DNA of 64,000 nucleotides from an uncultured Bizionia sp. (GCA_947496215.1 CANMCF010000023.1:2111-66110), one strand, 5' to 3'; numbered from the stretch's first letter, positions 4,038-26,145 are shown. A program made the numbers and translations. Notes: a model not told the origin generated them from the letters alone.

Positions 4038-4066
4038 AAGCTATTTCAAATTAAATTAAACTTTTT

Positions 4067-4110
4067 ACAGAATACACTGTAAAATGTTTGTTTTTATTTG
4101 TAAAATGTTT
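4067..4110 (+). promoter_or_regulatory. Bacteroidota-type promoter (-33 TTTG at 4077-4080, -7 TATATTTG at 4101-4108) overlapped by two direct TGTAAAATGTTT boxes (4069-4080, 4089-4100)
   Basis: The sequence ctgtaaaatgtttgtttttatttgtaaaatgttttatatttgta matches the TTTG/TAnnTTTG consensus with about 20 nt spacing. The same architecture recurs at 13090-13152 and 22420-22463. Confidence 0.6.
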
Positions 4111-4386
4111 TATATTTGTACTGCAATAATGTTGCTAATATACAAAATTATCTATAAATCAAACATTTGTATAAAAACAGAGCAACAATTTCTTGATTTT
4201 ACATAAAAGACGTCTTGAAAAATCAAAACGACGGATAACTATTCAAACATTTTTTTGAATAGGGTGGAGAGTTATGCCTTTCATTATTAAGGCTTTGTAT
4301 TGAGGTTTACCTGTTGGAAAAGCGAAATGAAGACAGTTCTTGATAACAAGAACCCAATAATGATTATAAATTTTAAAACAATTAGA
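4111..4386 (+). promoter_or_regulatory. Long conserved 5' leader of large gene 1, containing a 9-bp-stem hairpin (4239-4247/4254-4262) and a 9-codon uORF MPFIIKALY (4274-4303)
   Basis: About 235 nt (from 4158) are nearly identical to 13187-13418, with roughly 14 differences by eye. The coding sequence that follows is clearly more diverged than that. Confidence 0.5.
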
Positions 4387-7300: not shown

Positions 7301-8337
7301 CTACGGTGAAGTTCTTTGAGCAAGCCTTCGATTGGGACATCATGGCTTATGTCTTATATCCGTATTTCTATGCGAAGCAATCGGATTGGAAGACATTGTT
7401 CCAAGAAACAGACGTTGCAGATCCTATTTTCCAAGCCTTTTTACAGTCGGGTATGGCAAGAACGGTTGTTCCTGTGCGTCCAGGGTTCGAAGATGCGGTA
7501 AACTGGTACATGTCCACGGGCGAAATCTGGAATGGGGAAGGATTGATCACAGATCAAGACGATGATCTTTACGTGTCCATCTCAGAAGAAATGGAAACTG
7601 TGGAAGGAGTAGTGGAAGAGACTTGGGAAACACGTTTGCCTACGAGTTTGACGGTGATACAAGCTGGGTCCATAGGTTTGAATGTGGAAGGCCTACCATG
7701 CAATGTGGATTGTGATGACTTTGCGTTGTTCGATTCTGATGGAAACCCAGTATTGGATTCAAACGGAAACCCATTGACAAACAACCCTATAGAGCAAACC
7801 GATGTTTTGATTGGAGGAGCCTCTGGGGTAGGAGGAACTGGTACAGAGGAACTTAAAATGGTCGAGTTTACCTTTGTGGACAACACGGGAAGCAATTTTG
7901 CCAATATAGGGGAGTATGATGCAGAAGGAGCCTTTCCTTTGGTTTTCAAATGCATGGATCAAAAAATAGAGATTCAAAGAGAAGCCCAATGGCATGCCTC
8001 AAACAGCGTTGGTGTAATCTATCAGAAATTGGCGGAACAAGTGTCTTTGATTTCAGGGATTCAGGCAAATCAAGTCTTTAGTAAGAAAGGAGATCCATTG
8101 GGAATTAGATTCAAGGTAGAGATAGCCAAAATTCCAACATTCACATTTGAGAAATTCGTTGAAAAAGGAGCGTTCTCCGAACCAAACCACGATTTATTGA
8201 AGCTAATCATCAATGATACTGCTGTAAAGGTGATATCTCCTACCGTGTATTTGGATAGAATCTTCGATAAAGCAAATACAGGGCTCAAGGAAGCAGAATT
8301 AAACATCAATTTACCTATCGATAGGTTTTTGGTATGA
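4387..8337 (+). CDS. Giant protein 1 of an unrecognised family (about 1316 aa). No signal peptide. Mosaic of conserved and variable modules.
   Basis: Uninterrupted ORF 4300-8337; the track start is a TTG, and ATG 4387 (MRKEIKQNLFRFVTLRNPQLI) aligns with the paralog. Paralog of 13419-17081. I recognise no known domain signature. Confidence 0.85.
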   Translation: MRKEIKQNLFRFVTLRNPQLIDKKESHPGFVYHPDDNYERSVYSEVLSETDEASKMALSKAVSDEFVPLKGRKGVKDYRQTIYDFSLWLMRNKNHLSYKSIKSNAQGVDNLTTEALLVIWDNLIYQTINKKSVYVREALIQVLIADQFFKAFKDFSAGLSGDILFTEDQEKEFVRRANASVVISKALLAATTIKPTTKEKRVSISKIKELENATDVALAKERVQRYQTLVEELKSVETKYKNENQVKYEKALTDYNQTIENLLKKVEPVIVEETNTKGEVSKIETYPNLDLPKFVYNKEAAINKEYLTNKISKDSLAILEEQGLDVHKDFSEVFDAVKTKVKDENEIILGKAPKQIKTLKVGGASVTVNPSLESEPYDYNISPLHSINPGGLRNINMLIFNYVQDSQITDVSYKITFNNGTEKTSTDFTIFNSGTTQILRLFPNLIAFPFGTLSYTLEGEITLEDQTKLSFSKLVKMKSRHNFGMFDLQNDDSGDNPVDSQVFGVTNLGIADFRRVEQEVCCYVPGEVSHIENIMAREYKERATRSLNSIETTSEETSERETEKLTDTTTTERNEMQSEVSSVINEDKSKNYGANASVSGKFGTTSFNAGAHFDASSSSSTSNSNSQAQTYAQEVTERAMERIVQKVSSKRTSRILKEFEENNKHGFDNTKGDKHITGVYRWVDKIYKNKLINYGKRLMYEFAIPEPARFLKDALIKKADDGQLDSGIILPVEPVKPSTIGLNSATNINESSYQGFASKYAAEVSAPVDQYLKIGRAFSKDDQSYDAKGYAFNDIDVPEGYYATSGTVNWAVIQKNNSHKFMSIGLGDSRHSVIGGSGSTSFYNFSDIYKKNIPFSFNTWYIHSGHFNVTINCTRSNEEYKQWQNETYTAIMDAYNDRLREYNEAMAANNIVPDNDEKVSFNPAFNRSLEKKELKRIAIELLIDQDRVSKNDYVDDSLVKVKNDEAFHAHAATVKFFEQAFDWDIMAYVLYPYFYAKQSDWKTLFQETDVADPIFQAFLQSGMARTVVPVRPGFEDAVNWYMSTGEIWNGEGLITDQDDDLYVSISEEMETVEGVVEETWETRLPTSLTVIQAGSIGLNVEGLPCNVDCDDFALFDSDGNPVLDSNGNPLTNNPIEQTDVLIGGASGVGGTGTEELKMVEFTFVDNTGSNFANIGEYDAEGAFPLVFKCMDQKIEIQREAQWHASNSVGVIYQKLAEQVSLISGIQANQVFSKKGDPLGIRFKVEIAKIPTFTFEKFVEKGAFSEPNHDLLKLIINDTAVKVISPTVYLDRIFDKANTGLKEAELNINLPIDRFLV

Positions 8338-8718: not shown

Positions 8719-11088
8719 ATGAACAATACAATATACAATGAAACGATTAGAGATATGACACATGTGAGCAAGTTGGCGTCTCAAAAGTTTTATAATAGGA
8801 CGGCTCCGGAAATCTCACAAATCTACTTCCCACAATCTGACCAAAAAAAAATCAAGAACATCGTGGTTGAAACAGATGTGGATACAAGTGGCAAGCTGTT
8901 GGAATATGTGACGAAACGGGTGTATTTCTATGACAAGAACAACAACAACAAGCTGGATGATGATGAACAGTTGGCCTACAATGCTTACATATACACGTCA
9001 ACAGATGCCATAAAGTTGAAAGAGACATATGAAGTGGCCGAAGCAGGGGAAGACGATGTCTTGATTTTTGTAGAAGACAACCAAGGAGACGTAAGTTCCC
9101 AGTTTTGTAGAGCTAGAGTTGGAAAAAATGTTTTGAGCAATTTAAAGAATGCAGGCCATTTATACAACAACAGGAAACTTTTGGCAAGAATAAACGAACA
9201 TGCCCCTATCGATGAAGCCGTTTTAAATGAATTGTTGAAAAAGGGAAAGATAGAGAATACCACGTTGAAGGTGTTGGAATTCTTGTTTGCAGTTCCGGAT
9301 TATCTAGGCCCTTTCAGTCCAAATACTTTTGTAATGAAAGGCTTGGGAACTATATGTGAGGAGATTGCAAAGTTTATAAACAAGGCAAAAGTAGACGATT
9401 ACAGGTGGAACCCCCAAGCTAAAAAACGCAATGAGGATGGGACAGAAGATGAAACACATGAGTTTGCTCCTTTCCTGTTTCCCTTTGTGACAGAAGCATT
9501 GGATAGCATTGATGATTCCAAGGTAAATGGATATATGCAAAAATCCATTGCAGAATTGAAAAGTTTATACGCTTCTCAAGATCAAGCCATTCAAAATTAC
9601 GTTAAGAATGTGGATGTCGGCCGCTTGGGCAATGTGCCAATTTATTTTCCCTATGGAGGTTACGTGAACGTGGAAGTGGATTTGGTTCCGGATTCCATAG
9701 AACTGTTTTTGTTTAACAAGTACTTGCAAGTGAAAAAAGTGATAGATGCGGTATTCGAGAAATTGGAAGGGTTTGATTTCACGGACCTCATCAAAAAAGG
9801 GATTACCACGGCCAATGCATTCCTATGTGGTGTTTGGAATGGTTTGGTAGATGCCATTTCCGGTATTTTCGTGCTTTTGGAAATGGTGTTCAAAGCCGCC
9901 GCTGCAATGAATGATTTCAGGCAAAACTTCAGTACGGAATTTCCAATATTGTTGGAGTATATCGATAACTTTACGGAAGCATTGAGCAGTATAGATTTCA
10001 AAGAGCTCTATACACATCTAAAAACAAAGTTGTCAGATGCATCCATAGGAAGCATATCTTTGGAAACGATTGCTTATTTTAGTGGAGCGTTCATTGGGTT
10101 TGTAATAAGTTTGGTTATTGAAATAGTCGTAGGGATTCTATTTACAGGTGGTACGTTGAGTGTGGCAGCTGTAATAGAAAAGCTAGCGGCCATATTTTCA
10201 GGATTGCTCAGAGCAGGAGCCAAGGTTTTGAAAAAGACTTTTGATTTTTCAAAAAAATTGGTGGTCAACACCTTCAAGGGGTTCAAAAAGTTGTTGCAAG
10301 GAATGATAACTCTTTTGCGTAAGGGAACAGCTGGTTTCAAAGTAATGATAGATGACATATTCAAGGCATTCGGAATTTATGCCAAGGAAGCATTGAGTAA
10401 TGCAAATTCAGGATTGATACCGTTGTTGACAAAAGCAGAATTAAACCTCTACAAGAATTTGGCAAAAGCTTTTTTCAAGCCATTCAAAAAGTTGCTTTTA
10501 AGATATGCGGATAATGCAAGGGTGTTAAGGAGGTGGAGAAAGTTGAACCCTATGGATAGTCTATTAAAAGTTGATATAGACGAACTTTTAAGACTTAGGT
10601 CTTTAAATAAAAGAGGTTACAACAAAAATACTGCAACTATGAAAGCTCAAGTAGAGGTAAATGGAGAAGTTCTTGAGTTGGAATATAAAGCTTTGGCTGG
10701 TAATAAGACTAGTGGAGAAGGATTGCTTGGTAATGTGAATAAAGACTATATAGCTAAGCAATTAGGTATTAGTATAGAAGATTTAATGAAACATTTTGAT
10801 GATATTGCTGATGATGATTTGATAAGAAGGTTTCATGATAGTGAGCATAAGATCTTTAGTGCTTTCGATGATGATGTGTTGAAGCTTCAAACCCGTTATG
10901 GTAAAGAAAGTGTAAATGTTAAGAGTGTAAACTTTAAAACACTTTACGAACCATGTATATCTTGTAAACGTCAAATGATCATTCGTCAAGAAATGCACGA
11001 ATTTTCACTTAAAGTTCAGGCAATATTAATAAAAGGTAAGAATTACGCAAAAAATAATTCAGACTTACAAAGTTTAATGTTAAAATAA
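8719..11088 (+). CDS. Membrane-module protein with polymorphic C-terminal toxin domain (deaminase-like)
   Basis: Central hydrophobic helices (GVWNGLVDAISGIFVLLEMVFKAAAA; IAYFSGAFIGFVISLVIEIVVGILFTGG) are shared with 17278-19125. The C-terminus has FHDSEHKIF followed about 35 aa later by LYEPCISCKRQM, resembling the deaminase HxE...PCxxC layout. An immunity gene starts 6 nt downstream. Confidence 0.6.
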   Translation: MNNTIYNETIRDMTHVSKLASQKFYNRTAPEISQIYFPQSDQKKIKNIVVETDVDTSGKLLEYVTKRVYFYDKNNNNKLDDDEQLAYNAYIYTSTDAIKLKETYEVAEAGEDDVLIFVEDNQGDVSSQFCRARVGKNVLSNLKNAGHLYNNRKLLARINEHAPIDEAVLNELLKKGKIENTTLKVLEFLFAVPDYLGPFSPNTFVMKGLGTICEEIAKFINKAKVDDYRWNPQAKKRNEDGTEDETHEFAPFLFPFVTEALDSIDDSKVNGYMQKSIAELKSLYASQDQAIQNYVKNVDVGRLGNVPIYFPYGGYVNVEVDLVPDSIELFLFNKYLQVKKVIDAVFEKLEGFDFTDLIKKGITTANAFLCGVWNGLVDAISGIFVLLEMVFKAAAAMNDFRQNFSTEFPILLEYIDNFTEALSSIDFKELYTHLKTKLSDASIGSISLETIAYFSGAFIGFVISLVIEIVVGILFTGGTLSVAAVIEKLAAIFSGLLRAGAKVLKKTFDFSKKLVVNTFKGFKKLLQGMITLLRKGTAGFKVMIDDIFKAFGIYAKEALSNANSGLIPLLTKAELNLYKNLAKAFFKPFKKLLLRYADNARVLRRWRKLNPMDSLLKVDIDELLRLRSLNKRGYNKNTATMKAQVEVNGEVLELEYKALAGNKTSGEGLLGNVNKDYIAKQLGISIEDLMKHFDDIADDDLIRRFHDSEHKIFSAFDDDVLKLQTRYGKESVNVKSVNFKTLYEPCISCKRQMIIRQEMHEFSLKVQAILIKGKNYAKNNSDLQSLMLK

Positions 11089-13089: not shown

Positions 13090-13152
13090 AAACATTTTAC
13101 AAAACAAATAGTGTTGTAGTTGCTTTTGTTTGTAAAATGTTGTATATTTGTA
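13090..13152 (+). promoter_or_regulatory. Second copy of the promoter/operator. The upstream TGTAAAATGTT box is inverted here (13091-13101). A direct box at 13131-13142 abuts the -7 element TATATTTG at 13143-13150.
   Basis: aaacattttacaaaacaaa ... tttgtttgtaaaatgttgtatatttgta forms a 17-18 nt inverted repeat around an approximately 19-nt spacer. Confidence 0.55.
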
Positions 13153-13418
13153 ATGTAATAAGGCTGCTAATGTGCTGAAAAACTATAAATCAAACATTTG
13201 TATAAAAACAAAGCAGCAATTTCTTGATTTTACATAAAAGACGTCTTGAAAAATCAAAAACGACGGATAACTATTCAAACATTTTTTTGAATAGGGTGAA
13301 GAGTTATGCCTTTTATTATTAAGGCTTTGTATTAAGTTAAACCTGTTGGAAAAGCGAAACGATGACAGTTCTTAAAGACAAGAACCTAATAATAATTATA
13401 AATTTTAAAACAATTAGA
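13153..13418 (+). promoter_or_regulatory. Second copy of the conserved 5' leader, including the same hairpin and the uORF MPFIIKALY (13306-13335)
   Basis: Near-identity to 4111-4386. Within the uORF the only differences are ttc to ttt (synonymous) and tga to taa (stop to stop). Confidence 0.5.
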
Positions 13419-16400
13419 ATGAGCAAAGAGATTAAACAAAACCTATTTAGGTTTGTAACCCTACGTAATCCACAATTAATAGAAGACAAAAAAGAACATC
13501 CAGGTTTTGTATATCATCCAAGTGAAGATTATGACGGGAGTGCATACAGAACCATGCTTACAGAAACAGATGTTGCAAGTAAAAAAGCATTGTCTAAAGT
13601 CGTTTCGGATGAATTCACCCCTTTAAAAGGTCGTAAAGGTGTAAAGGACTATTCACAAGCAATGTATGACTTTTCGTTGTGGTTGATGCGCAATAAGAAC
13701 CATTTGTCTTATCAAAGCATAAAATCCAATGCAGAAGGAGTTGGCAATTTGACAACAGAGGCACTTTTGGTTGTTTGGGACAATTTAATATATCAAACAA
13801 TAAACAAAGAATCCGTTTATGCGCGAGAAGCTTTGATACAAGTTTTAATTGCAAATCAATTTTTAAAGGCATTTAAAGGTCTTTCAATAGGAATGGAAGA
13901 ATTTACAGATGACACTGAAAAGGAGTTTGTGCGAAGAGCAAATGCAAGCGTTGTAATTTCGAAATCCTTATTTGTTGAGAATGGAGAGAAAAGTCAATCT
14001 AAAAAAAGATTGACAGAATCTCAAGAAAAAGCAATGCTTAAAGTGATTGAAACAGAAGAAGCCAAGGAGAATTTGGCAGCTTATAAAAAATTGAATGCTG
14101 AGCTTAAAGGAATAGAGATAGGTTACAACAAGGAATCTCAAAGATCATACGATAATACTTTAAAAACGCACAAAGCATCTATAGCTAAAATATTGGCGTC
14201 AACAGAACCTGTAGTAGTTAGTGAGACAGACCCAAGAACAGGAGTTGTTAAAAAAGTTAAAACATATCCAAACTTGGAACTGCCATCGTTTAACTTTGAA
14301 AACACAAAAGCAATAGATTCCAAATACTTGAAAGAGCGATTGTCTCCAGAATCTATGCAGGTTTTCGATGCAGTAGAGTTAGGGGTTTACGATGATTTTT
14401 CTGAAGTGAACAACGCTATTAATAATCAAATTCAGCTTGTAAATCAAACGATTCTAAATAACGATTCTTCAACATCAGGAACGGTATTGGTTGGGGGAAC
14501 CACAACTACCGTAAGTGAAAACATGGCAACTTTAGACCCTTATTGCTTTTTTGTTTCTAGGTTGAGTTCAATAGGAAACCCCGGATTGACCATGTTTTTA
14601 GGAACTGGGTACTTGGGAGCTTTAGCATCGAATGCGTCTTACACTTTGGAAAACTTGGATTCTAACATAAAGTATGAAGGAACAGTAATACAAACAAATT
14701 CTAGTTTCAACAATACAAGTACGCGTTTGTTTTTTCCAATAGCTCATCCTATAGACAATAATGGGAGTTATCGTTTTTCGGGAAAATTCACATTGGATAA
14801 TGGCGTGACATTAAGTTTCGATGTTACAAACGACGTATCTAAACGAGGTGTGAGATTTAATGGTTGTTGTGATGCCGTAAAAGGAGATGATACTACAGAT
14901 CCAGCAGGAGGAGAGGTTAAGCCACAAGTGTTTGGAGTCACCAATTTAGGTATTGCGGATTTCAGACGTGTAGAACAAGAGGTGTGCTGCTATGTGCCTG
15001 GAGAAGTGTCACACATAGAAAATATCATGGCACGTGAATACAAAGAACGTGCAACAAGAAGTTTGAACAGTGTAGAAACTACCAGTGAGGAAACGACAGA
15101 ACATGAAACAGAAAACTTAACAGATACAACTACAACCGAGCGCAATGAAATGCAGAGTGAAGTTGCTTCCGTTATTAATGAGGATAAATCTCAAAACTAT
15201 GGAGCAAATGCAAGTGTGAGCTATAGTCCTACAAAAGCATTGTCCATAAATGCAGGAGGTTATGCGGATTTTTCATCATCAAGCTCTACGTCAAACTCCA
15301 ATAGTCAAGCTCAAACCTATGCACAAGAAGTGACTGAGAGAGCAATGGAGCGTATTGTTCAAAAAGTAAGCAATAAACGTACTTCTCGTATTTTAAGAGA
15401 GTTCGAAGAGAATAACAAGCATGGTTTTGACAATACCAAAGGCGATAAGCATATTACAGGTGTGTACCGTTGGGTTGATAAGATTTACAAGAATAAATTA
15501 ATCAATTATGGTAAGCGTTTAATGTATGAATTTGCGATACCGGAACCAGCTAAATTTTTTAAGGAGGCATTATGGAAAAAGTTCAAAAACGATGAATTGG
15601 GGGCTGAGGTTGTATTGCCTATAAAACCAGCTCATCCAAGAGACATTGGTGTGACTTCTCCAACGAGTATTATAGAGTCGACTTACCAATTAAAGGCGGC
15701 TGAATACAATGCAGAGGTTATTGCAGCTCCAGAAAAATACGATTATGTCGGTACGTCGTTTACTAAATCGCAACAAGGTGGAGACGGCGGAGATAACACC
15801 AATAAATCTGCCAAAGATGTCATTAAAATCCCAAAAGGATATAAAAGCATTGCAGCAAAAACAACAGGAAGACAAAAAAATGGTGCAGTTTTAATTTCTG
15901 TTGCCGGTGAAGACTTTCCTGTTAATAGTTCGTACTATTCTACAATAACTCCTCATTTGGACGAATTACCTGTTTCTGTTTCTTTTGAATGGAACTGGGT
16001 GACGAATGTAAATATAGATGTAAAGTGTGAGAGAACGGATGGAGCCTACAAACAATGGCAAAATGAGACGTTCAATGCTATCATGGAAGCTTATAATGAC
16101 CGTTTGCGAGAGTATAACGAATCGATTATTGCAAATGAGATCAACCAGAATGCCAGTGGTGAAAAATTAAAATTCAATCCATTGTTCAATAGAAGTATAG
16201 AAAAGAAAGAGTTAAAACGTATTGCGATTGAATTGATCATTGATCAAGACAGGATTTCCAAAAACAATTATAATGCAATCAATGATGCTACAGGTTTGTC
16301 AAAAGTGATGAAAACACAAGGTTTGCAAGATCATGCAGCTACCGTTAAATTCTTTGAGCAAGCATTCGATTGGGATATCATGTCATACATCTTTTATCCA

Positions 16401-17081
16401 TATTTTTATGCTAATGAAGAGAATTGGAAAGACTTGTTTCAGTCTCAAGATGCAGCAGATCCGTTATTTCAAGGTTTCTTGCAATCCGGTATGGCTAGAA
16501 CAATTGTTCCTGTTCGCCCAGGGTTTGAAGACGCAATGAACTGGTATATGTCTACTGGAGAAATCTGGAATGGTCAAGGATTGATCACGGATCAAGATGA
16601 TGACCTTTATGTGTCCATTGCAGAAGAAATGCAAACCGTGGAAGGAGAAGTGGAAGATACGTGGGAAACACGTTTGCCAACCAATTTAACTGTAATACAA
16701 GCAGGTTCAATAGGTTTAAATGTGGAAGGGTTGCCATGTAACATTGATTGCGACGATTTTGCGTTGTTTGATTCTGATGGCAAGCCAATTTTGGATGACA
16801 ATGGAAAGCAGGTGACTGAAAACCCGATAGAGCAAACCAATACAATGGTTGGGGGCGAGCTTGATCCAACCGAGTTGGAAAAGGTACAAAGCCGCTTGAT
16901 CGAAAATGTAGACATAGACAATGGTTACCTTAAACTGACCACAGAAGGAAGCAACAGGCAGACAGTTGCACAAATTTCCGTGGAAGCAATCAAACGAGCC
17001 ATAGATGAGTCGGTAGCTACTACGACGACCAGAACGTCTACCCTTGAAAAAGGCTCTGAAACAACTACGGCTTCAAGATAA
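13419..17081 (+). CDS. Giant protein 2 of the same unrecognised family (about 1220 aa)
   Basis: Uninterrupted ORF 13362-17081. ATG 13419 (MSKEIKQNLFRFVTLRNPQLI) aligns with protein 1. The N-terminal, core and C-proximal modules are shared, while two internal regions and the tail differ. Confidence 0.85.
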   Translation: MSKEIKQNLFRFVTLRNPQLIEDKKEHPGFVYHPSEDYDGSAYRTMLTETDVASKKALSKVVSDEFTPLKGRKGVKDYSQAMYDFSLWLMRNKNHLSYQSIKSNAEGVGNLTTEALLVVWDNLIYQTINKESVYAREALIQVLIANQFLKAFKGLSIGMEEFTDDTEKEFVRRANASVVISKSLFVENGEKSQSKKRLTESQEKAMLKVIETEEAKENLAAYKKLNAELKGIEIGYNKESQRSYDNTLKTHKASIAKILASTEPVVVSETDPRTGVVKKVKTYPNLELPSFNFENTKAIDSKYLKERLSPESMQVFDAVELGVYDDFSEVNNAINNQIQLVNQTILNNDSSTSGTVLVGGTTTTVSENMATLDPYCFFVSRLSSIGNPGLTMFLGTGYLGALASNASYTLENLDSNIKYEGTVIQTNSSFNNTSTRLFFPIAHPIDNNGSYRFSGKFTLDNGVTLSFDVTNDVSKRGVRFNGCCDAVKGDDTTDPAGGEVKPQVFGVTNLGIADFRRVEQEVCCYVPGEVSHIENIMAREYKERATRSLNSVETTSEETTEHETENLTDTTTTERNEMQSEVASVINEDKSQNYGANASVSYSPTKALSINAGGYADFSSSSSTSNSNSQAQTYAQEVTERAMERIVQKVSNKRTSRILREFEENNKHGFDNTKGDKHITGVYRWVDKIYKNKLINYGKRLMYEFAIPEPAKFFKEALWKKFKNDELGAEVVLPIKPAHPRDIGVTSPTSIIESTYQLKAAEYNAEVIAAPEKYDYVGTSFTKSQQGGDGGDNTNKSAKDVIKIPKGYKSIAAKTTGRQKNGAVLISVAGEDFPVNSSYYSTITPHLDELPVSVSFEWNWVTNVNIDVKCERTDGAYKQWQNETFNAIMEAYNDRLREYNESIIANEINQNASGEKLKFNPLFNRSIEKKELKRIAIELIIDQDRISKNNYNAINDATGLSKVMKTQGLQDHAATVKFFEQAFDWDIMSYIFYPYFYANEENWKDLFQSQDAADPLFQGFLQSGMARTIVPVRPGFEDAMNWYMSTGEIWNGQGLITDQDDDLYVSIAEEMQTVEGEVEDTWETRLPTNLTVIQAGSIGLNVEGLPCNIDCDDFALFDSDGKPILDDNGKQVTENPIEQTNTMVGGELDPTELEKVQSRLIENVDIDNGYLKLTTEGSNRQTVAQISVEAIKRAIDESVATTTTRTSTLEKGSETTTASR

Positions 17082-17277: not shown

Positions 17278-19125
17278 ATGAGTAATATAAATGAGAACAA
17301 TCCATTGGAGGGAATCGATTTCCCGGATGGTGTTTCAAATGCCTCTAACCTCTTTGCTGCAAATGCACCGATTTCGAATTCCATATTTCAAACTTGTACT
17401 ACAGATAATTTTTTGAATTACTTCTTTCAAGGAGCAGAGCGTAAGGATGTCGTGGAAAAAATGGGAGCTTTTGGAGGCAAGATAGTAGAAGAAACTTATG
17501 TTGGAGGAGGAATCGAAAAAGTATATAGGACAAACCGATATGTCAAAAAAGATGGAATTAGGCAAGAAGCGGGAACAGTGGTTTTGATTATTGGTACAGA
17601 TGGAGCAGAAATACTGAAGACCCATAATGGCTTGGTGCCAAAAAAAGGGGAACAAATTATCCTTCTGGAAAAAAATGACAATGATTTCTCTGGAGCCATA
17701 ATGCGTTTTAAACAGGATACAAGTATAAACATCAACAAATCCGCAGTTTCATTGACCAGTTTCATCAATAAACGCTATGAGATCACATTGGATCAATTTA
17801 AAGACATTGTCAATAGGGTAGACAACACCTCTGCTCTGGAAAGTTTGGTGATCTCGATACTTGACAATACCAAAACAGTTAGAACCGTGGCAACGGTAGG
17901 TTTGGCATTGGCAGGTAAAATGATAGACTCAGCCATAAAGGGGTTTGATGAATTTGTGGATGGTTCGCTAAAGATCGATCCTAGTTTTTGGAACCCGGAC
18001 CATAAGGATTTCAAACAGAAGGTAAATGTAACATCAGAACAAATAAAGGAGTTAACAGCCTCTTTGGATGTTATTGGTGGAAAAGTGGATGGATTGAGTT
18101 TTAAAAGCGTGGTTGCTGCCGGAGGAGCTGCATCTGTGGCAGCAGGACCGTTTGCACTTGCATTTCTGGCTCCCGGAGCAGTGGCATACAAATTATATTC
18201 CGAAGAAATAGAATTGGTGTTCGATAAGATGAAGGCTCAAATAAAAAGCGCCCTAAAGACTCTTAAGGAATTTTTGAACAATACGTTGGAAAGCCTGATA
18301 AAAGGCATAAATACGACAATAAATGTCGTATTGGCTTTTATTTCCGGAGTTTGGTCAGGTTTGGTGGACTTTGTTGCAGACATCATAAGGCTCTTCCTGT
18401 TCTTGGTGAAATTGGCTGTGGCCGGTGCAGGAAAAGTAAATGAGGTGATTGGTGTTAAAGAAGGGGATTCCAAAGCATTTGTAAAGAACTTTGGGTTGTA
18501 CTATAACCTCATCTTGGAAAACATAGATAATACGTTGCAAGGTTTGGGAGCAGTAAACTGGTTGGAATTCTTCAAGGAATCCTTTTTAAAGTTCGAACTG
18601 TTGAAAATACGTATCCTAGCCAAGATCTTCGATAAGGCCGGGAAGACTCTGGACGGATTGAATTATGCTGAGTGGGCCTATTACATAGCCTATGCCATAC
18701 TATTGATTGCAGATATCATATTGTCCTTCTTCTTTCCTGGTCTGTTGGCAACCAAAATAGCCAAATTAGGCAAGGCAGGAAAGGTGTTGGCGAAAATCAT
18801 TGTAGCTGTGCAGGATGCTATGGCACTTGTATTTAAAATAGGGTTTAAGACAGTTGCCTTTGGTGTGAAAAGCATTATAGGTGTTTGGTCCAGCATTGTA
18901 GGTATTTTAAGAAAGGGAACTAAAAAACTCTTGGAGTTTTTGGATGTAGTGTTCGCTAATCTGGCAAAGGTGTTCGATGAGGTTATTACTGGGGTGTCTA
19001 AAGCGGCAGAAAAGGCTTACAAGTCTTTGTTTAATGTAACTGAACGAAGTTTGATAGATAAGTTGGGCTTAAAGGTAAGTAAATACGAGGATGACATATT
19101 AACACTTTGTCCGATAGGCAAATAA
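17278..19125 (+). CDS. Membrane-module protein, paralog of the central part of 8719-11088
   Basis: LAFISGVWSGLVDFVADIIRLFLFLVKLAVAGAG and GILRKGTKKLLEFLDVVF align with GVWNGLVDAISGIFVLLEMVF and LLRKGTAGFKVMIDDIF of the 789-aa protein. The N- and C-termini are unrelated. Confidence 0.7.
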   Translation: MSNINENNPLEGIDFPDGVSNASNLFAANAPISNSIFQTCTTDNFLNYFFQGAERKDVVEKMGAFGGKIVEETYVGGGIEKVYRTNRYVKKDGIRQEAGTVVLIIGTDGAEILKTHNGLVPKKGEQIILLEKNDNDFSGAIMRFKQDTSININKSAVSLTSFINKRYEITLDQFKDIVNRVDNTSALESLVISILDNTKTVRTVATVGLALAGKMIDSAIKGFDEFVDGSLKIDPSFWNPDHKDFKQKVNVTSEQIKELTASLDVIGGKVDGLSFKSVVAAGGAASVAAGPFALAFLAPGAVAYKLYSEEIELVFDKMKAQIKSALKTLKEFLNNTLESLIKGINTTINVVLAFISGVWSGLVDFVADIIRLFLFLVKLAVAGAGKVNEVIGVKEGDSKAFVKNFGLYYNLILENIDNTLQGLGAVNWLEFFKESFLKFELLKIRILAKIFDKAGKTLDGLNYAEWAYYIAYAILLIADIILSFFFPGLLATKIAKLGKAGKVLAKIIVAVQDAMALVFKIGFKTVAFGVKSIIGVWSSIVGILRKGTKKLLEFLDVVFANLAKVFDEVITGVSKAAEKAYKSLFNVTERSLIDKLGLKVSKYEDDILTLCPIGK

Positions 19126-19138
19126 AACCGATACATGT

Positions 19139-19960
19139 ATGAAACAGACAATAAAAAAACTGTGCTTGTATTGGCAAGCCAAAAAAGTAGAAGCCAAAGC
19201 AATTAAAAAAATTGTTGATTTACCAATGTTAAAAGTGGTATATAAAAAAGATACTAGTATAACATTGGGTTGTTTAACGACAGGAATGTCCAATAGCAAA
19301 CCGACTTTGTCATGGAATAGTGTGGAACTATTGGTCAAAAACAAAACTGGAGATGTCAGGGATTTTTTTAAAAAGGTTTATAAGGAATCCAAGGCCAAAA
19401 ATATCTCTCCACAAAAGTATTTGGATGAGTTGGCTGAATTAACTGAAAAAGCTAATTTACGTAGGATAGCTTTAGGGAAATGGGCTAATAAGTTTGATTC
19501 TAGTTTTTTCAATCATCTGAGCGGAGATGTTGGGACTGAGAAAATAACAATTTTTTTTAAAGAATTAGTTTATGTTGCCCCTAAAGGGCAAGGAGGACAT
19601 TGGCTTAATAAATTTTTAAAAGTAGATCAGGTTACTTTTCCTCCAGGAATTAGCAAGGTTAGTCAAATAGCAGATGATGTTCCTTTTAAAGCAAAAGTTA
19701 CCATTAAATCTGCAAAAGGTAAAGTATTTCCAAAAACAGCAGAGTCTTCTATGTTTCCTAAAAATTGGAGTAAAACAAGAATACAGGAAGAAATTGCTTG
19801 GGTTTATGAAAATACTGTAGTTAAAAATATTAATAGAAAAATAAAAGGACCAAACGATTTATTTAATAAGTTTGAAGGAGATACAACAACTGGGTTTAAA
19901 GTATTGTTAGAGGTTGATGACTTAGGAAAAATTGTTAATGCATATCCAATTATTATTTAA
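19139..19960 (+). CDS. Stand-alone toxin with C-terminal bacterial EndoU-like RNase domain
   Basis: GQGGHW ... SSMFPKNWSKTRIQEEIAWVYEN ... GKIVNAYPI matches my recollection of the EndoU_bacteria pattern (GGH ... FFP..WS ... I.taYP). Confidence 0.6.
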   Translation: MKQTIKKLCLYWQAKKVEAKAIKKIVDLPMLKVVYKKDTSITLGCLTTGMSNSKPTLSWNSVELLVKNKTGDVRDFFKKVYKESKAKNISPQKYLDELAELTEKANLRRIALGKWANKFDSSFFNHLSGDVGTEKITIFFKELVYVAPKGQGGHWLNKFLKVDQVTFPPGISKVSQIADDVPFKAKVTIKSAKGKVFPKTAESSMFPKNWSKTRIQEEIAWVYENTVVKNINRKIKGPNDLFNKFEGDTTTGFKVLLEVDDLGKIVNAYPIII

Positions 19961-21871: not shown

Positions 21872-22372
21872 ATGTTATTGGCTCTAGATGTCCATTATAA
21901 AGAGAATTATGCGAAAAGCGTTGGAGTGATTTTCAATGCCACAGAGGGCACTTTGCAAGCTAGCCTCATAGAGATCATAGATGAGGTTGAGGATTATGTG
22001 TCTGGACAATTCTACAAACGCGAACTGCCATGTTTGTTGAAGGTTGTGGATAAGGTAAATTTGACGACTATTGATGCAATTGTCGTAGATGGTCATGTAT
22101 ATGTGGACAATGATTGCAATCTGGGGTTGGGCGGACACTTGTACAAGGCATTGGATGAACAAATACCAATTATTGGGGTTGCCAAACGCTCTTTTCATGA
22201 CACTGAGGCTGTTTCAAAGGAGGTCTTCAAAGGGAAAAGTAAGAATCCGCTTTATGTTTCTGCGATTGGCATGGATTTACAGGATGCCATAAGCATTATC
22301 TCTCAGCTTCATGGGGAGCATAGAATACCAACGATTCTCAAGGCGTTGGACGATATTACAAAAGAAGCATGA
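21872..22372 (+). CDS. nfi: Endonuclease V family protein
   Basis: Aligns by eye with E. coli Nfi: LDVHY vs ADVGF, YVSGQFYKRELPCLL vs YIPGFLSFREYPALL, VVDGH...IPIIGVAKRSF vs FVDGHG...VPTIGVAKKRL, and NPLYVS vs NPLFIA. Confidence 0.75.
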   Translation: MLLALDVHYKENYAKSVGVIFNATEGTLQASLIEIIDEVEDYVSGQFYKRELPCLLKVVDKVNLTTIDAIVVDGHVYVDNDCNLGLGGHLYKALDEQIPIIGVAKRSFHDTEAVSKEVFKGKSKNPLYVSAIGMDLQDAISIISQLHGEHRIPTILKALDDITKEA

Positions 22373-22419
22373 TTGCAAGATTCTGTCTTAAAACAAATTA
22401 CAAAAAACAATAAATTAAT

Positions 22420-22463
22420 CTGTAAAATGTTTGTTTATTTTCTGCAAAATGATTATATTTGTA
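22420..22463 (+). promoter_or_regulatory. Third copy of the promoter/operator (boxes tgtaaaatgttt 22421-22432 and tgcaaaatgatt 22443-22454; -7 TATATTTG at 22454-22461)
   Basis: ctgtaaaatgtttgtttattttctgcaaaatgattatatttgta has the same architecture as 4067-4110. The downstream leader is unrelated. Confidence 0.55.
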
Positions 22464-22623
22464 TTCGCTTTTCTAACAACGGTTTACCGAAGTTAAAATT
22501 AATTCGTGTTAAGTAGAAACCCAAAAACCTAGGCTTAATCTATATCTGATTAAGAAAAAACAAGCAATGGAAGTCTTTGGTCAGTGGTTTGGTCTACTTG
22601 AAGTTAAAAAATCAAACATATGT

Positions 22624-23061
22624 ATGAGTATAATTAATAAAGCGCTATCCGAGTATGGCGTTAAGGAAATTGTAGGCTCCAAAGACAACCTTAGAATCTT
22701 GAAGTATTTTGATGAAATAGGTTTCAATGGCTCAAAATTACATGACGAGACAGCTTGGTGTAGTGCTTTTGCAAATTGGGTTGCAAAAACCTCAGGTCAT
22801 GAGTATTCCAAGAAGTTGAATGCTAGAAGTTGGCTGGCTGTTGGAGACTCCACTAACAGACCCAAGGTGGGAGATGTAGTGGTACTTTGGCGAGAAAGCC
22901 CAAACAGCTGGAAAGGGCATGTTGGGTTCTTTGTCAAGGAGACCAAGAATTTCGTGTATGTCTTGGGAGGCAACCAACGTAATATGGTATGTATCAAGGC
23001 TTACCCAAAAAGTCGTGTGTTAGACTATAAAAAACTCAAAAAAAATAACAAATTAAAATAG
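22624..23061 (+). CDS. TIGR02594-type NlpC/P60-CHAP-like peptidoglycan hydrolase (endolysin-like)
   Basis: GVKEIVGSKDN..ILKYF...DETAWCSAFANWV...ARSW...GDVVVLWR...KGHVGFF...VLGGNQRNMV matches the TIGR02594 family pattern. Confidence 0.8.
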   Translation: MSIINKALSEYGVKEIVGSKDNLRILKYFDEIGFNGSKLHDETAWCSAFANWVAKTSGHEYSKKLNARSWLAVGDSTNRPKVGDVVVLWRESPNSWKGHVGFFVKETKNFVYVLGGNQRNMVCIKAYPKSRVLDYKKLKKNNKLK

Positions 23062-23068
23062 ATGAGAT

Positions 23069-23503
23069 ATGGACAGAGTAATCAAATTAATGTTTTGGTT
23101 GCTTACGCTCTTGTCTCCTGTTAATGGTGTTATGGTAACTATGGTTTTTTTAATTGTAGTCGATTTTATAACAGGATCGTATGCAGCTATCAAAAATCAC
23201 ATCCCTATTAGAAGTTCACGAATTGGACATACCATTTCTAAATTTTTTATTTATAACCTGGTTATTCTGGCTGCATTCTTTTTAGAGAAGCACATCGTGG
23301 ACGAAGTGCCTTTTTTAAAGATAATAGCAGGCTTTATAGCGATAACCGAAATAAAATCGGTTTTGGAGAACTTTAATAAAATTTATGGAGTAAATCCTTT
23401 TAAAGCTTTGGTCAACTTGATAAAGATGACACCTTTGAAGGATACGATAGAAACACTTACAGAAGATGAAGACGCTTCGAAAGAAGCTTCCAAGAAGGCG
23501 TAA
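23069..23503 (+). CDS. Phage_holin_4_1-type holin
   Basis: Multiple TM helices with VVDFITGSYAAIKNH...SSRIGHTISK...ITEIKSVLENFNKIYG, a pattern typical of this holin family. Confidence 0.75.
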   Translation: MDRVIKLMFWLLTLLSPVNGVMVTMVFLIVVDFITGSYAAIKNHIPIRSSRIGHTISKFFIYNLVILAAFFLEKHIVDEVPFLKIIAGFIAITEIKSVLENFNKIYGVNPFKALVNLIKMTPLKDTIETLTEDEDASKEASKKA

Positions 23504-23625
23504 AAAACTAAAACCAAACCTTTCAAAAGCAAGAAATCCTTCCTAAGAAGCTTAGGAAGGAGGCTTTTGATTGTTTAAACAATGAGATTCCTCTGAGATG
23601 GGGATTGAATAAAAAACTTTTTTCG

Positions 23626-24228
23626 ATGATACAATTTTCAATAAAAACAGAAAGATTGCTCTTGTTGATCATACTGGCATTGGTAATCTGCAATTTACTT
23701 TTAAAACAGTGTCGTGGTGGGGAACCCATTGAAAAACCTGTGGTGACCATTAAAAGAGATACGGTTTGGCAAACTAAGGTAGACACGTTCAAGTTGCAAA
23801 CGGTGAAATATGAAACAGTTTATGTAAAAAAGGATGATGTCTCGGACATCGTTGAAGATGCAACCAAAATAGTTGACCTGTCCCTTTATGATAAAGCAAG
23901 GATTTACAAAGACACTCTGAGTAACGATGACATAGATATATATAGTTATAATTTACTCGATGGAAATTTACTGGATGGCCAATTGTCCTATAAATTGAAA
24001 GTGCCTCGGGAAATAACCGTTACAAAGACGATAGAGCACCCAAAGAGCTTCAGGAGTGGATTATATGTGTTTAGTGAGGTTGGTGGCAACGTGAGTACTT
24101 TAGACAACCTTAGTTTGGGTTTGCAATACAATAGAAAAGGGAATTGGTTTGCGAGCTATAGATTGAATTTTAATAGCTTGAGACAGCCAACACACAATGT
24201 AGGCATAGGTGTACGGTTGTTCAAGTAG
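23626..24228 (+). CDS. N-terminally membrane-anchored hypothetical protein (third gene of the lysis cassette; spanin-like role possible)
   Basis: TM anchor LLLLIILALVICNLLL followed by a beta-rich region. Preceded by the hairpin 23537-23561 (tccttcctaag/cttaggaagga). The function is an inference from position only. Confidence 0.45.
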   Translation: MIQFSIKTERLLLLIILALVICNLLLKQCRGGEPIEKPVVTIKRDTVWQTKVDTFKLQTVKYETVYVKKDDVSDIVEDATKIVDLSLYDKARIYKDTLSNDDIDIYSYNLLDGNLLDGQLSYKLKVPREITVTKTIEHPKSFRSGLYVFSEVGGNVSTLDNLSLGLQYNRKGNWFASYRLNFNSLRQPTHNVGIGVRLFK

Positions 24229-24271: not shown

Positions 24272-24305
24272 AAAAAGCCTCATCTTGAAGATGAGGCTTT
24301 TTATT
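24272..24305. terminator. Bidirectional terminator
   Basis: aaaaagcctcatcttgaagatgaggcttttt palindrome located between convergent genes. Confidence 0.75.
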
Positions 24306-24321
24306 CTATGAAAAAGAAATA

Positions 24322-26145
24322 TTAATTCTTGTTGTTTTCCCGATTTATATCGGCCATCAACCCTTTTGAGTCTATTTCAACGGATTTCACGGCTTTTTTT
24401 GCCTCAAAGGAATAGGTGGGGTGTGCCCAAGCCCAATCTGCTATTCTGGTCGCAGAGCTTGGTTTTTCCCCACGCATCATTTGTAGAGGGATGTAGATGT
24501 CCTCCTTGGAGCCATCTTCGTAGCTCACGGTCAAGTCCAAAGGCATTGGCATTGTACCAATACGTTCCAAGGTAACCGTCTTGTTGTCCACGCTTTTTAC
24601 GGCGTAGTCAATGGTGTTGGTCGTTTGTGTCCAATCCGTCAAGTACCAATCCAATTCCAGTCCAGATACTTTTTCTGCACAACGAATGAAATCGTTTGGA
24701 GTAGGGTGTTTAAACGCCCAGTCGTCAAAGTATTTCTTTATGGTCTTCTTTAGGTTGTCTTGGCCAATCACATAGCCCAATTGGGAAAGGAATACAGAGC
24801 CTTTGTTATAGGCTGCAATGCCGTAGGCCATGTTGGAGTCAAAACGATCGGCGTGAGTTGTCTGTGGTCTTTCTTTTCCAGATTTCGCCAAATAGTCATA
24901 ACCACGATATGCTCCCAAGTTTGGGACATCCTTGTTGGAGCCCATGATTTCATTCATGGCGTGGTCGCTTATGTAACTTGTAAAGCCTTCATCCATCCAT
25001 TCGTGTTTACCTTCATGTGTAGCCAATAAGAATTGAAACCAAGTATGTGCCAACTCATGTGCAGTTACACCTACCAAGCTTCCAAACTTGCGTTTACCAG
25101 TGATCAAAGTACACATGGCATATTCCATTCCTCCATCACCTCCTTGAATGACGGAATATTGCTTGTATGGATATTTACCGATGTTGGCGCTGAAGTATTC
25201 CATTAATTGAACTGTTTTTGGTTGAAGGTCTTTCCAGAACTTCAAGTTTTCCGTTGGCAATGTTTTCTTGTAATAGAAATGAAGCATTGGGCCATTTGGA
25301 ACTTGCATCGTATCATGAACATATTCAGGATCTGCAGCCCAAGTGAAATCATGCACATTTGGAGCAATGAAATGCAGTGTTTTTTTGTTGCCTTTGATTT
25401 CCGTATCGTTTTGAAGATATCCAGAACCTCCAACGACGTAGTCTTTGTCTATGGTCAACTTCAAGTCGAAATCCCCCCAAACACCGTGGAATTCCCTTCC
25501 TATGTATGGGTCTGCATGCCATCCTTGAAAGTCGTACTCAGCCAATTTCGGGTACCATTGTGTCATGGACAAGGCAACACCTTCTTTGTTGTTCCTTCCC
25601 GAACGACGAATTTGTACAGGTACCTGTGCATTGAAAACCATGTCGAAGGTTACGCGTTCACCAGGTTGAATGGGTTTAGCCAACTCTACCTCCAATACAG
25701 TTCCCGCTGTTTCGTGTTTTACCACGGCACCGTTTTGCTTTAACGAGGTGACTTTTATGTAACCAATCTCATTGGGTTTCAATGTGCTTATTCTGCTTCC
25801 TACCCTTGGGTCGGCATCTTCGATGGTTCTCGAACGCACATCCATTTCGCTTCCAGGTTGGAAGGCATTGAAATGCAAGTGATAAAAGACCTTGTTTAAG
25901 ACATCCGGTGAATTGTTGGTGTAAATTAATTTTTGTGTGCCTTGATATTGGAAATTGTTTACATCCATATCAATTTCCATCTTGTAATCTGCATGTTGTT
26001 GCCAATATGTGGATTTTGAGATGGTGTTTGTGCTAGGGGCTTTTACAGGATTGTTGTTGGATGCAGTGTCTGTTGTACTTTTGGAAGCATCGCAAGAACT
26101 TAGCAACAAAGAGGCGGAAAAGCCATACAATAAAATCTTTTTCAT
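24322..26145 (-). CDS. M1 family metallopeptidase (aminopeptidase N-like), lipoprotein signal
   Basis: HELAHTWF (HExxH) followed by WMDEGFTSY. Signal peptide ending with SSC. Confidence 0.9.
   Translation of the reverse strand: MKKILLYGFSASLLLSSCDASKSTTDTASNNNPVKAPSTNTISKSTYWQQHADYKMEIDMDVNNFQYQGTQKLIYTNNSPDVLNKVFYHLHFNAFQPGSEMDVRSRTIEDADPRVGSRISTLKPNEIGYIKVTSLKQNGAVVKHETAGTVLEVELAKPIQPGERVTFDMVFNAQVPVQIRRSGRNNKEGVALSMTQWYPKLAEYDFQGWHADPYIGREFHGVWGDFDLKLTIDKDYVVGGSGYLQNDTEIKGNKKTLHFIAPNVHDFTWAADPEYVHDTMQVPNGPMLHFYYKKTLPTENLKFWKDLQPKTVQLMEYFSANIGKYPYKQYSVIQGGDGGMEYAMCTLITGKRKFGSLVGVTAHELAHTWFQFLLATHEGKHEWMDEGFTSYISDHAMNEIMGSNKDVPNLGAYRGYDYLAKSGKERPQTTHADRFDSNMAYGIAAYNKGSVFLSQLGYVIGQDNLKKTIKKYFDDWAFKHPTPNDFIRCAEKVSGLELDWYLTDWTQTTNTIDYAVKSVDNKTVTLERIGTMPMPLDLTVSYEDGSKEDIYIPLQMMRGEKPSSATRIADWAWAHPTYSFEAKKAVKSVEIDSKGLMADINRENNKN

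Follow-up and report, generated by a model that had tools for sequence, protein, structure and literature searches.

The locus described here raises a simple question: what does a phage-type lysis cassette do in a bacterial chromosome when no phage surrounds it? The cassette lies at 22420-24228 in a stretch of 64,000 nucleotides (nt) from an uncultured Bizionia sp. (GCA_947496215.1, CANMCF010000023.1:2111-66110), which we refer to as the window. A first-pass annotation of this DNA had suggested that the cassette could be the export route for leaderless giant proteins and toxins encoded in the same island. We found that the cassette has the same operator and promoter as two giant-gene operons, that this arrangement recurs in many genera, and that a repressor of the self-cleaving S24 type is encoded next to the first of these operons. 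With moderate confidence, we read the cassette as a domesticated, vertically inherited phage lysis module that would form one S24-controlled regulon with the giant and toxin operons and would burst some cells, releasing their products.

The first-pass annotation had described a unit of a hydrolase, a holin and a protein of 200 amino acids (aa). All three genes were found, as a trio on the + strand at 22624-24228:

22624-23061, + strand: TIGR02594/CHAP (NlpC/P60-superfamily) peptidoglycan hydrolase, 145 aa, leaderless, candidate endolysin
23069-23503, + strand: Phage_holin_4_1 holin, 144 aa
23626-24228, + strand: third protein (p3), 200 aa from its ATG

The hydrolase scored 111.6 bits against TIGR02594 (cut-off 70.55) and 34 bits against Pfam CHAP (cut-off 26), and its cysteine (DETaWCSA), histidine (SWKGH) and LGGNQ motifs were invariant in 47 sequences. 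These scores and catalytic residues place it in the TIGR02594/CHAP group of the NlpC/P60 superfamily, and muralytic activity is predicted. It has neither a hydrophobic segment nor a signal peptide. Its length is 145 aa from the start at 22624, in place of the 146 aa first given; an in-frame ATG further upstream, at 22567, was rejected as the start because it is not conserved in relatives. The holin scored 43.8 bits against Phage_holin_4_1 (gathering cut-off 22.2). Its hydrophobic stretches at residues 4-41 and 54-77 and its charged C-terminal tail of acidic and basic residues, EDEDASKEASKKA, give it the several transmembrane segments, small size and charged C-terminus of that family. Only 7 nt separate the hydrolase stop at 23061 from the holin start at 23069, and a cytoplasmic, signal-less endolysin thus stands beside a holin in one operon, as in the canonical Gram-negative cassette. 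For p3, the start at 23605 proposed by the open reading frame (ORF) finder was not supported by homologues and was rejected.

We searched for a phage context by scanning the large ORFs of the 64 kb with Pfam and PHROG. No capsid, terminase, portal, integrase or tail genes were detected, in agreement with the earlier statement that the window holds no phage structural genes. A prophage context was rejected on the ground that structural, packaging and integration genes were not found in these scans; a canonical lysis cassette is located in a phage or prophage genome, and this one is not. Outside 3.2-24.3 kb, the window encodes housekeeping functions. The guanine-plus-cytosine (GC) content of the cassette equals the window mean of 0.38. 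The only GC-poor stretch was found at 10-14 kb, in the toxin and immunity region between the two giant operons (0.29-0.31 vs the window mean of 0.38), which is consistent with horizontally exchanged immunity or orphan cassettes. The unit can be described, from its predicted products, as a complete set of holin, cytoplasmic muralytic enzyme and accessory envelope protein that lies outside any prophage, much as it had first been annotated.

To compare the promoters of the island, we used the operator consensus TGTAAWATG and a composite pattern, in which an operator copy is followed by a -7 box TAnnTTTG. The features concerned are the following:

22391-22402, - strand: distal inverted operator-like copy, TGTAATTTGTTT, with 2 mismatches to TGTAAAATGTTT
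22421-22433, + strand: operator copy TGTAAAATGTTTG, with exact copies at 4078, 4099 and 13090 (- strand), conserved in related loci
22443-22451, + strand: promoter-proximal operator copy TGCAAAATG, 2 nt upstream of the -7 box
22454-22461, + strand: -7 box TATATTTG of the Bacteroidota TAnnTTTG type, invariant or nearly so across loci
4058-4118, + strand: giant-1 promoter with operator array (copies at 4058 on the - strand and at 4078 and 4099 on the + strand, then TATATTTG)
13090-13150, + strand: giant-2 promoter with operator array
4387-8337, + strand: giant protein 1, 1316 aa, leaderless, putative cargo or partner
13419-17081, + strand: giant protein 2, 1220 aa, paralogue of giant 1
3225-4037, - strand: repressor with helix-turn-helix (HTH) and Peptidase_S24 domains (CI/LexA-like), divergent from the giant-1 promoter, candidate operator-binding protein

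The three promoters were found to have a common layout, in which an inverted AAACATTTTACA is followed by TGTAAAATGTTTG, about 9 nt, TGTAAWATG, 1-4 nt and TAtaTTTG. Bacteroidota promoters have a -33/-7 consensus, and the final TTTG of TGTAAAATGTTTG lies 20 nt upstream of the -7 box, at the position expected of the -33 element. The cassette and giant-1 promoters match exactly over 17 nt (22420-22436 and 4077-4093) and also in the adjoining -7 box region. The composite pattern occurs exactly three times in the window, before giant 1 (4099), giant 2 (13131) and the cassette (22443). In a first-order Markov simulation, its mean count was 0.18 and a count of 3 was reached in 0 of 100 sequences. All three occurrences thus stand before the toxin operons or the lysis operon, and the 17-nt match together with the threefold pattern bears out the claim that the cassette is under the same operator and promoter as the giant genes.

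This architecture is not peculiar to the window. A TGTAAWATG copy was present in about 45 related cassette promoters, in giant-gene promoters and in promoters beside the S24 gene, and the inverted copy stands upstream of two direct copies in most of them. The whole architecture was found upstream of the cassette in about 45 related loci; upstream of giant genes in Kordia, Winogradskyella and Tenacibaculum; and beside and divergent from an HTH and Peptidase_S24 gene in Kordia, Tenacibaculum and an unclassified Flavobacteriales metagenome-assembled genome (MAG). It has been kept across at least six genera, both before the cassette and before giant genes. This conservation supports the proposal that the cassette is co-regulated with the giant and toxin genes.

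The product of the divergent gene matched Peptidase_S24 (5e-10) and the PHROG_4 transcriptional repressor family (1.7e-22), with a weak match to HTH_19. It contains the GNSM motif with the catalytic serine, the LKR lysine and an Ala-Gly site, and such motifs and profile matches are those of an S24 repressor that cleaves itself and carries a DNA-binding domain. The Kordia and Tenacibaculum proteins are 77-80% identical to it, a higher value than for the hydrolase. We infer from these features that the S24 protein binds the TGTAAWATG array and that its self-cleavage would derepress the three promoters. In Kordia, we also observed a gene for a 51-aa Cro-like HTH protein (L045:2973-3125, and also in L046, L049, L053 and L056). 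It lies downstream of the S24-divergent promoter and completes a CI/Cro-like switch there. The window has no counterpart of this gene, and the same promoter directly drives giant 1.

The giant genes are accompanied by toxin genes. Each giant gene is followed by a polymorphic toxin of 600-800 aa with a variable C-terminal domain, and then by immunity genes:

8719-11088, + strand: polymorphic toxin, 789 aa, with a tape-measure-like hydrophobic region and a C-terminal HxE...PCxxC deaminase-like motif
17278-19960, + strand: 615-aa toxin-family protein and 273-aa EndoU nuclease toxin

SUKH immunity genes follow the gene for the 789-aa toxin, whose homologue in Tenacibaculum ovolyticum carries a YwqJ-deaminase domain and is followed by SUKH-3. 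Across loci, the toxin domains were EndoU, YwqJ-deaminase and Tox-MPTase4, and the immunity proteins were of the SUKH type. Both the 789-aa and the 615-aa toxins (8719-11088 and 17278-19125) have a glycine-rich hydrophobic centre with weak matches to tape-measure PHROG families (E ~7e-6). On reading the N-termini, we found no signal-peptide-like hydrophobic start in the giants or the toxins, and no type 9 secretion system C-terminal domain was found in them. By synteny and by the shared operator, a holin and a hydrolase outside a prophage are thus linked to leaderless putative cargo, as in type 10 secretion.

The giant family is restricted to Flavobacteriales and is annotated just as hypothetical in Flavobacteriaceae and Chryseobacterium. 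The ORF-finder starts of giants 1 and 2 were 29 and 19 codons too early. Sequence and profile searches with the giants gave no Pfam, PHROG, PADLOC or PDB sequence family. An AlphaFold2 model (predicted local distance difference test score, pLDDT, 63.6; predicted template modelling score, pTM, 0.32) gave no significant Foldseek match in PDB or BFVD. The most conserved stretch of the family, ADFRRVEQEVCCYVPGEVSHIENIMAREYKER ... GVYRWVDKIYKN.LINYGKRLMYEFAIPEPA, is also the part that AlphaFold predicted worst.

We then surveyed relatives, using one genome per species and flanks of 6 kb around p3. p3 was found to be encoded at 56 loci, from Bizionia, Lacinutrix, Olleya, Psychroserpens, Winogradskyella, Tenacibaculum, Pseudotenacibaculum, Kordia, Aquimarina, Aureitalea and several MAGs. 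The hydrolase-holin pair was located upstream on the same strand within the 6-kb flank in 46-50 of the 56 loci. In six further loci, fibre-type genes occur in this flank, so the pair may lie beyond it. The closest locus to the window was that of a Bizionia sp. MAG, in which the neighbouring proteins are 81-100% identical. Across the loci, identity to the window proteins was 54-95% for the hydrolase and holin and 44-85% for p3, a level similar to that of the M1 peptidase, S8 protease and metallo-beta-lactamase genes nearby.

The gene order also recurs at loci located through homologues of the giant proteins. In T. ovolyticum, an S24 gene on the - strand is followed by a giant, a YwqJ-deaminase toxin and SUKH-3, and further on by Tox-MPTase4, EndoU, and then CHAP, holin and fibre genes. 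In Winogradskyella luteola, the order is OmpA, S41 and RnpA, further on S24 on the - strand, a giant, proteins of 764 and 120 aa and EndoV, and after this CHAP, holin, fibres, p3, M1 peptidase and S8. The layout of S24, giant, toxin and immunity genes, with (EndoV), hydrolase and holin (and fibres and p3) further along, thus recurs in the window and in these two species. In Kordia, the same genes are rearranged and the S24 gene directly precedes the cassette. Physical linkage of the cassette to giant-gene and polymorphic-toxin modules was found in Bizionia-like, Winogradskyella, Tenacibaculum, Kordia and other genomes, and the position of the cassette between S41/rnpA and the M1 peptidase is kept across genera. 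The tail-fibre-like genes that stand inside this operon in about two-thirds of related genomes mark the module as the end part of a larger system of phage origin, beyond a mere 'secretion' device. Judged from these comparisons, the island is old, apparently inherited vertically and under purifying selection, and is neither a recent prophage nor a decaying remnant.

To characterize p3, we analyzed its sequence and its distant homologues. p3 homologues at the surveyed loci are 195-203 aa long, and no Pfam, NCBIfam or PHROG family matched. The alignment of distant members showed hydrophobic residues 2-28 followed by a conserved Cys29 (...LLLKQ|C29), a lipoprotein-type signal. The protein had first been described as membrane-anchored: the N-terminal hydrophobic stretch is indeed there, and what it forms is a lipoprotein-type signal with a conserved cysteine in place of a plain anchor. 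When 1.8 billion representative proteins were searched with a profile, about 260 clusters emerged, almost all with lengths of 190-210 aa. p3 was predicted to be all-beta, with an AlphaFold2 model (pLDDT 57) too poor for a structure search.

The genomic context of the distant members (L058:8001-8627, L059:261-896, L060:2651-3253 and L061:5001-5627) was informative. One is encoded immediately 3' of a PG_binding_1 and Amidase_2 endolysin on a phage-like contig. Another ends the series Phage_holin_4_1, DUF7103, an uncharacterised protein and p3. Two more belong to crAss-like phages and adjoin DUF5675 and ring/muzzle genes. Because of these contexts, the p3 family is associated with the lysis modules of Bacteroidota phages. 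We propose that p3 would work like an outer-membrane lysis factor outside the spanin family, and that its family is a candidate for a new family of outer-membrane lysis lipoproteins of Bacteroidota phages. It may also act in receptor masking or self-protection. A tblastn search of GenBank phages with the window protein and two distant homologues gave no match, and a scan of IMG/VR with the close p3 alignment returned one locus, of the same chromosomal type. In the literature, we found nothing relevant on such a system in Tenacibaculum or on crAss-phage lysis.

The region between the holin and p3 contains a conserved RNA element:

23523-23569, + strand: hairpin with an outer stem AAAAGC/GCTTTT and an inner 11-bp stem at 23537-23561

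This intergenic region folds at z = -3.0 relative to shuffled sequences. The window hairpin is a shortened form of a 59-nt element that precedes p3 in many genera and is made up of AAGCC, 5 nt, an 11-bp stem, then a 5-bp apical stem whose loop is AG(G/T)AAGC, and GGCTT; the apical loop is almost invariant. We aligned the element from relatives (alignment A5; loci L005-L052, about 20-95 nt upstream of p3). Among 17 relatives, 96.7% of the cells were paired and 14 of the 21 pairs had compensatory changes. None of 500 shuffles was as good, and slid controls fell to 36-55% pairing. The hairpin that had been noted at 23537-23561 is therefore real, with an 11-bp stem that folds and covaries. In loci with fibre genes, the element is 3' of the fibres and still directly before p3. 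In several loci, only 19-34 nt lie between its end and the start codon of p3, too few for a separate promoter, and transcription of p3 must therefore pass through it. The earlier suggestion that the hairpin modulates read-through is a reasonable one in this light, and the element is probably an attenuator or a processing or stability element. The invariance of the loop may point to a specific protein partner or to a site of processing. The hairpin also contains a literal CTAA-N5-TTAG, one of the LexA boxes published for Bacteroidota, at 23543-23555. In relatives, its two arms are about 25 nt apart, and we rejected it as a coincidence.

The operon also has a long leader, which we compared with the 5' untranslated regions (UTRs) of the giant genes:

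22462-22623, + strand: untranslated leader of about 160 nt, with blocks GCTTTTCTAAC, GTTAAGTAGAAAC, CTGGTTAAGAA, TTTGGTCTGCTTAAAAT and AAACATATGT
22463-22499, + strand: 5' segment of the leader, reverse-complementary to both giant-gene leaders
4293-4327, + strand: giant-1 5' UTR segment complementary to the cassette leader, about 60-95 nt upstream of the start at 4387
13322-13358, + strand: giant-2 5' UTR segment complementary to the 5' end of the cassette leader

The leader is conserved across genera, with a mean column identity of 73% in an alignment of 28 sequences (alignment A2). Neither the leader nor the hairpin matched an Rfam 15 family at the gathering score; the best matches of the leader had E of at least 3, and the sole Rfam 15 match in the window was a tRNA at 48267-48340. 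The folding energy of the leader was unremarkable (z = -0.95), and RNAalifold found a modest long-range helix with a consensus of -6.2 kcal/mol. A stable riboswitch-like fold is unsupported by these values, and contacts with protein or between RNAs explain the conservation better than a stable fold does. The 3' end of the leader, AATCAAACATATGTATG, was also seen to resemble the inverted operator copy, and it overlaps the start codon of the hydrolase.

The first ~40 nt of the leader can pair with the giant 5' UTRs, 57-97 nt upstream of their start codons. In the window, the duplexes reached -30.6 kcal/mol (z = -4.9) for giant 1 and -29.3 kcal/mol (z = -4.8) for giant 2. The complementarity was found in four genera: in the window for both giants and, at loci L066, L064, L045, L046 and L053, in Winogradskyella, Tenacibaculum and three Kordia species. 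Over these genera, the duplexes ranged from -25 to -44 kcal/mol (z = -4.8 to -10.9), with 0 of 300 shuffles as good. Their flanks covary, as CTAACA/TGTTGG, CTAACA/TGTTAG, CTAATAG/CTGTTAG and CTAATGA/TCATTAG. This suggests that the lysis transcript may pair with the giant-gene transcripts in an mRNA-mRNA antisense coupling; an alternative could be an inverted DNA site that works independently of orientation. Because the 5' end of the leader can pair with the giant 5' UTRs, the leader probably adds a post-transcriptional timing or coupling step.

The cassette is flanked by the two genes named in the first annotation, an EndoV-like gene and an M1 peptidase gene:

21872-22372: EndoV-like gene, 166 aa, directly upstream of the cassette
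24272-24305, both directions: bidirectional intrinsic terminator, AAAAA-GCCTCATC-TTGAA-GATGAGGC-TTTTTATT, between p3 and the M1 peptidase, read from the sequence
24322-26145, - strand: M1 peptidase, convergent with p3

Strong terminators had been proposed on both flanks. A strong one was found downstream, at 24272-24305; upstream of the cassette, no terminator was seen on reading the sequence. In many genera, a short EndoV-like gene directly precedes the cassette, and the island around it abounds in deaminase toxins. Since deaminated DNA is the substrate of endonuclease V, the gene might be a protective accessory rather than a chance neighbour.

Taken together, the proposed course of events would be as follows. 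In uninduced cells, the S24 repressor (3225-4037) would sit on the TGTAAWATG(TTTG) arrays, whose sites overlap the region from -33 to -7 of the giant-1, giant-2 and cassette promoters. A signal for S24 self-cleavage, most plausibly RecA activated by DNA damage, would derepress all three promoters. The leaderless giants and toxins would then build up in the cytoplasm. The holin would permeabilise the inner membrane, so that the signal-less CHAP/TIGR02594 hydrolase could reach the murein and cut it, and read-through of the hairpin would yield the lipoprotein p3, which would help to breach the outer membrane. A fraction of the cells would burst and free the island products, which in many relatives would include the tail-fibre-like proteins encoded in the same operon.

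Several observations weigh against this account. That the giants are cargo is an assumption, as neither a family nor a fold was found for them. In Chryseobacterium (L065), a giant and a Tox-MPTase4 toxin are encoded with no holin cassette within 10 kb and with an M1 peptidase nearby; because of such pairs, giants do not strictly need an adjacent cassette. An i-spanin has an N-terminal transmembrane segment and a helical periplasmic domain and is paired with an o-spanin lipoprotein, and a u-spanin has a lipoprotein signal and a C-terminal transmembrane segment. p3 has no C-terminal transmembrane segment and no spanin match in PHROG or Pfam, and it does not supply the spanin of a canonical holin-endolysin-spanin cassette. 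The strong conserved hairpin between the holin and p3 means that p3 could be regulated differently. We infer DNA-damage control from the S24 fold alone. Published LexA boxes of Bacteroidota are GGA-N5-TCC as well as CTAA-N5-TTAG (PMC8565304), and neither is present in the three promoters. Finally, the fibre-like genes of relatives suggest that what is released may be a particle rather than free proteins.

The last point leads to an alternative that we consider unlikely but that fares best among the rivals, in which the cassette would form the end of a particle system of phage origin that serves lysis and host recognition, tailocin-like or a novel bacteriocin particle. Fibres would give it target specificity, the giants and the tape-measure-like toxins would be structural or ejected, and assembled particles would be released. 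We found that 1-4 tail-fibre-like genes separate p3 from the holin in about 36 of the 56 loci (L012-L014, L019-L021, L024, L026-L028, L030-L035, L037, L040, L041, L044-L050, L052-L054 and L056). Their products have a common N-terminus, MKQNKETLKxYFETGDKPTQEQY.DLIDS, and variable C-termini in which fibre repeats or a tail-collar domain occur. In the Flavobacterium myophage lotta8-1, a structural protein whose gene stands just behind the baseplate genes matches the N-terminal motif. In the same direction point the top PHROG match of the hydrolase, to the C-terminus of a baseplate hub/tail lysozyme family, the weak tape-measure matches of both toxins, and the listing of one such locus as viral in IMG/VR. 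However, neither the window nor the 10-kb flanks around related loci yielded sheath, tube, baseplate or capsid genes, and the sheath/tube, tape-measure and baseplate genes of an R- or F-type tailocin were detected in neither; of tailocin-type genes, relatives carry only the fibre-like ones. The window and about 20 other related loci have no fibre-like gene, and the giant model, as predicted, has no similarity to tail or capsid proteins.

A bolder form of the released-weapon idea can be put forward only tentatively. The island may be a phage-derived interbacterial weapon, in which co-induction through S24 would bring giants, toxins and fibres together in a complex that is neither a tail nor a capsid, and which would be released by lysis and timed by antisense pairing. 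The giants would, on this doubtful proposal, have a new fold, the toxins would carry a tape-measure-like region for membrane translocation, and the fibre-like proteins would be exchangeable receptor binders in many species. It is likewise a speculative part of this picture that the third lysis component would be a new outer-membrane lipoprotein family common with crAss-like phages, and no less speculative that pairing of the lysis leader with the giant leaders would set the time of lysis.

Regulated autolysis or altruistic death that does not serve the release of island proteins appears less likely still. Examples would be explosive lysis that supplies extracellular DNA, vesicles or material for the biofilm matrix, or abortive infection set off by a phage through inactivation of the S24 repressor. 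A repressor-controlled holin and hydrolase could serve any lysis-dependent trait, and the S24 repressor with its operator array resembles a prophage switch, as does the Cro-like 51-aa gene at the divergent promoter in Kordia. However, no island protein matched a defence family in PADLOC at E <= 0.001. The sole listing under a limit of 0.01 was ZorA against giant 1, at 12.8 bits, and we rejected a defence-system identity for lack of a meaningful match. A generic autolysin would also leave the conserved co-regulation and synteny with toxin-immunity and giant genes unexplained.

That the cassette is a functionless, decaying remnant of a defective prophage, its shared promoter a leftover of phage late or early promoters, is very improbable: all three genes have phage-family relatives and the repressor is CI-like, but the ORFs are intact, with invariant catalytic residues in 47-50 genomes of many genera, conservation equals that of the housekeeping neighbours at the same position between S41/rnpA and the M1 peptidase, the leader, operator and hairpin are all conserved, the last with compensatory changes, and there is no compositional anomaly.

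Release by lysis, as proposed here for the island products, is a known kind of system, and several components of this island are themselves uncharacterised. If our reading is correct, this would be the first lysis-cassette-based release system (type 10 secretion-like or bacteriocin-like) described in Bacteroidota. The system is conserved in many marine Flavobacteriaceae genera, including Tenacibaculum, with its fish pathogens, and the algicidal Kordia. It would offer a testable release route for a leaderless family of ~1200-1300 aa and its associated polymorphic toxins and, for a highly conserved CI/LexA-like repressor, a candidate regulon with its operator. Spanin equivalents are poorly defined in Bacteroidota phages, crAss-like phages included, and p3 would be a candidate for their outer-membrane lysis factor. 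The leader would provide an example of a possible antisense coupling, through mRNA leaders, of a lysis operon with cargo operons.

By analogy, the closest logic appears to be that of colicin and pyocin lysis genes and of type 10 secretion systems (PMC10847048). In Yersinia entomophaga, a holin-endolysin-spanin cassette releases the YenTc toxin by type 10 secretion (PMC10847048, PMC10101115). As in such systems, a chromosomal, non-prophage holin and peptidoglycan hydrolase, here with a putative outer-membrane factor, lie in genetic linkage with large proteins and toxins that have no leader, and lysis of some cells is the implied route of release. Serratia ChiWXYZ and Salmonella Typhi TtsA are further examples of lysis-cassette-dependent release. 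The window differs in its CHAP/TIGR02594 hydrolase, in place of a lysozyme or L-Ala-D-Glu peptidase, and in its third component, a new lipoprotein family in place of the Rz/Rz1 spanin. In place of a PhoB-like or other activator, a self-cleaving repressor of the S24 type, acting through one shared operator, seems to exert control here. The putative cargo, a giant family and polymorphic toxins with immunity genes, would also imply interbacterial rather than host-directed action.

Colicin operons encode lysis (bacteriocin release) lipoproteins, and the R/F-pyocin clusters of Pseudomonas contain a holin-endolysin-spanin cassette. The window resembles these SOS-controlled bacteriocins in its S24-type repressor logic and toxin-immunity pairs, in the proposed co-regulated lysis and suicide of the producer, and in its phage-derived origin. 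Unlike theirs, its operator is no known LexA box, and several promoters have a common operator in place of one operon or a PrtN/PrtR cascade. It has no tail structural genes, and its toxins are large and polymorphic, with a tape-measure-like hydrophobic region and a giant partner protein.

The pathogenicity locus (PaLoc) of Clostridioides difficile encodes the holin TcdE, the endolysin remnant TcdL and the giant toxins TcdA and TcdB (PMC12485765). Here too, a phage-derived holin and a muralytic protein are encoded beside giant leaderless proteins. PaLoc is Gram-positive, with a degenerate hydrolase and the sigma factor TcdR, whereas the cassette described here has kept its catalytic residues and has a third component that appears to be directed at the outer membrane.

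The late operon of lambdoid phages runs from a promoter through a leader of ~200 nt to holin, endolysin and spanin, and then to tail-fibre genes. The window has the same succession of a promoter, a long conserved leader and lysis genes, with fibres in the unit in relatives and a CI/Cro-like switch near. Unlike in lambdoid phages, no Q-type antiterminator or morphogenetic genes were found here. The leader also differs from that of lambda in its antisense complementarity to other operons of the island; we know of no description of such complementarity for lambda.

The repressor can be compared with the non-canonical, phage-CI-like LexA proteins of Bacteroidota (PMC8565304). It is like them in its XRE/CI-type N-terminal HTH, its S24 domain with an extra C-terminal helix and its very high conservation. 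It differs from them in its apparent sites, which here are TGTAAWATG repeats, both direct and inverted.

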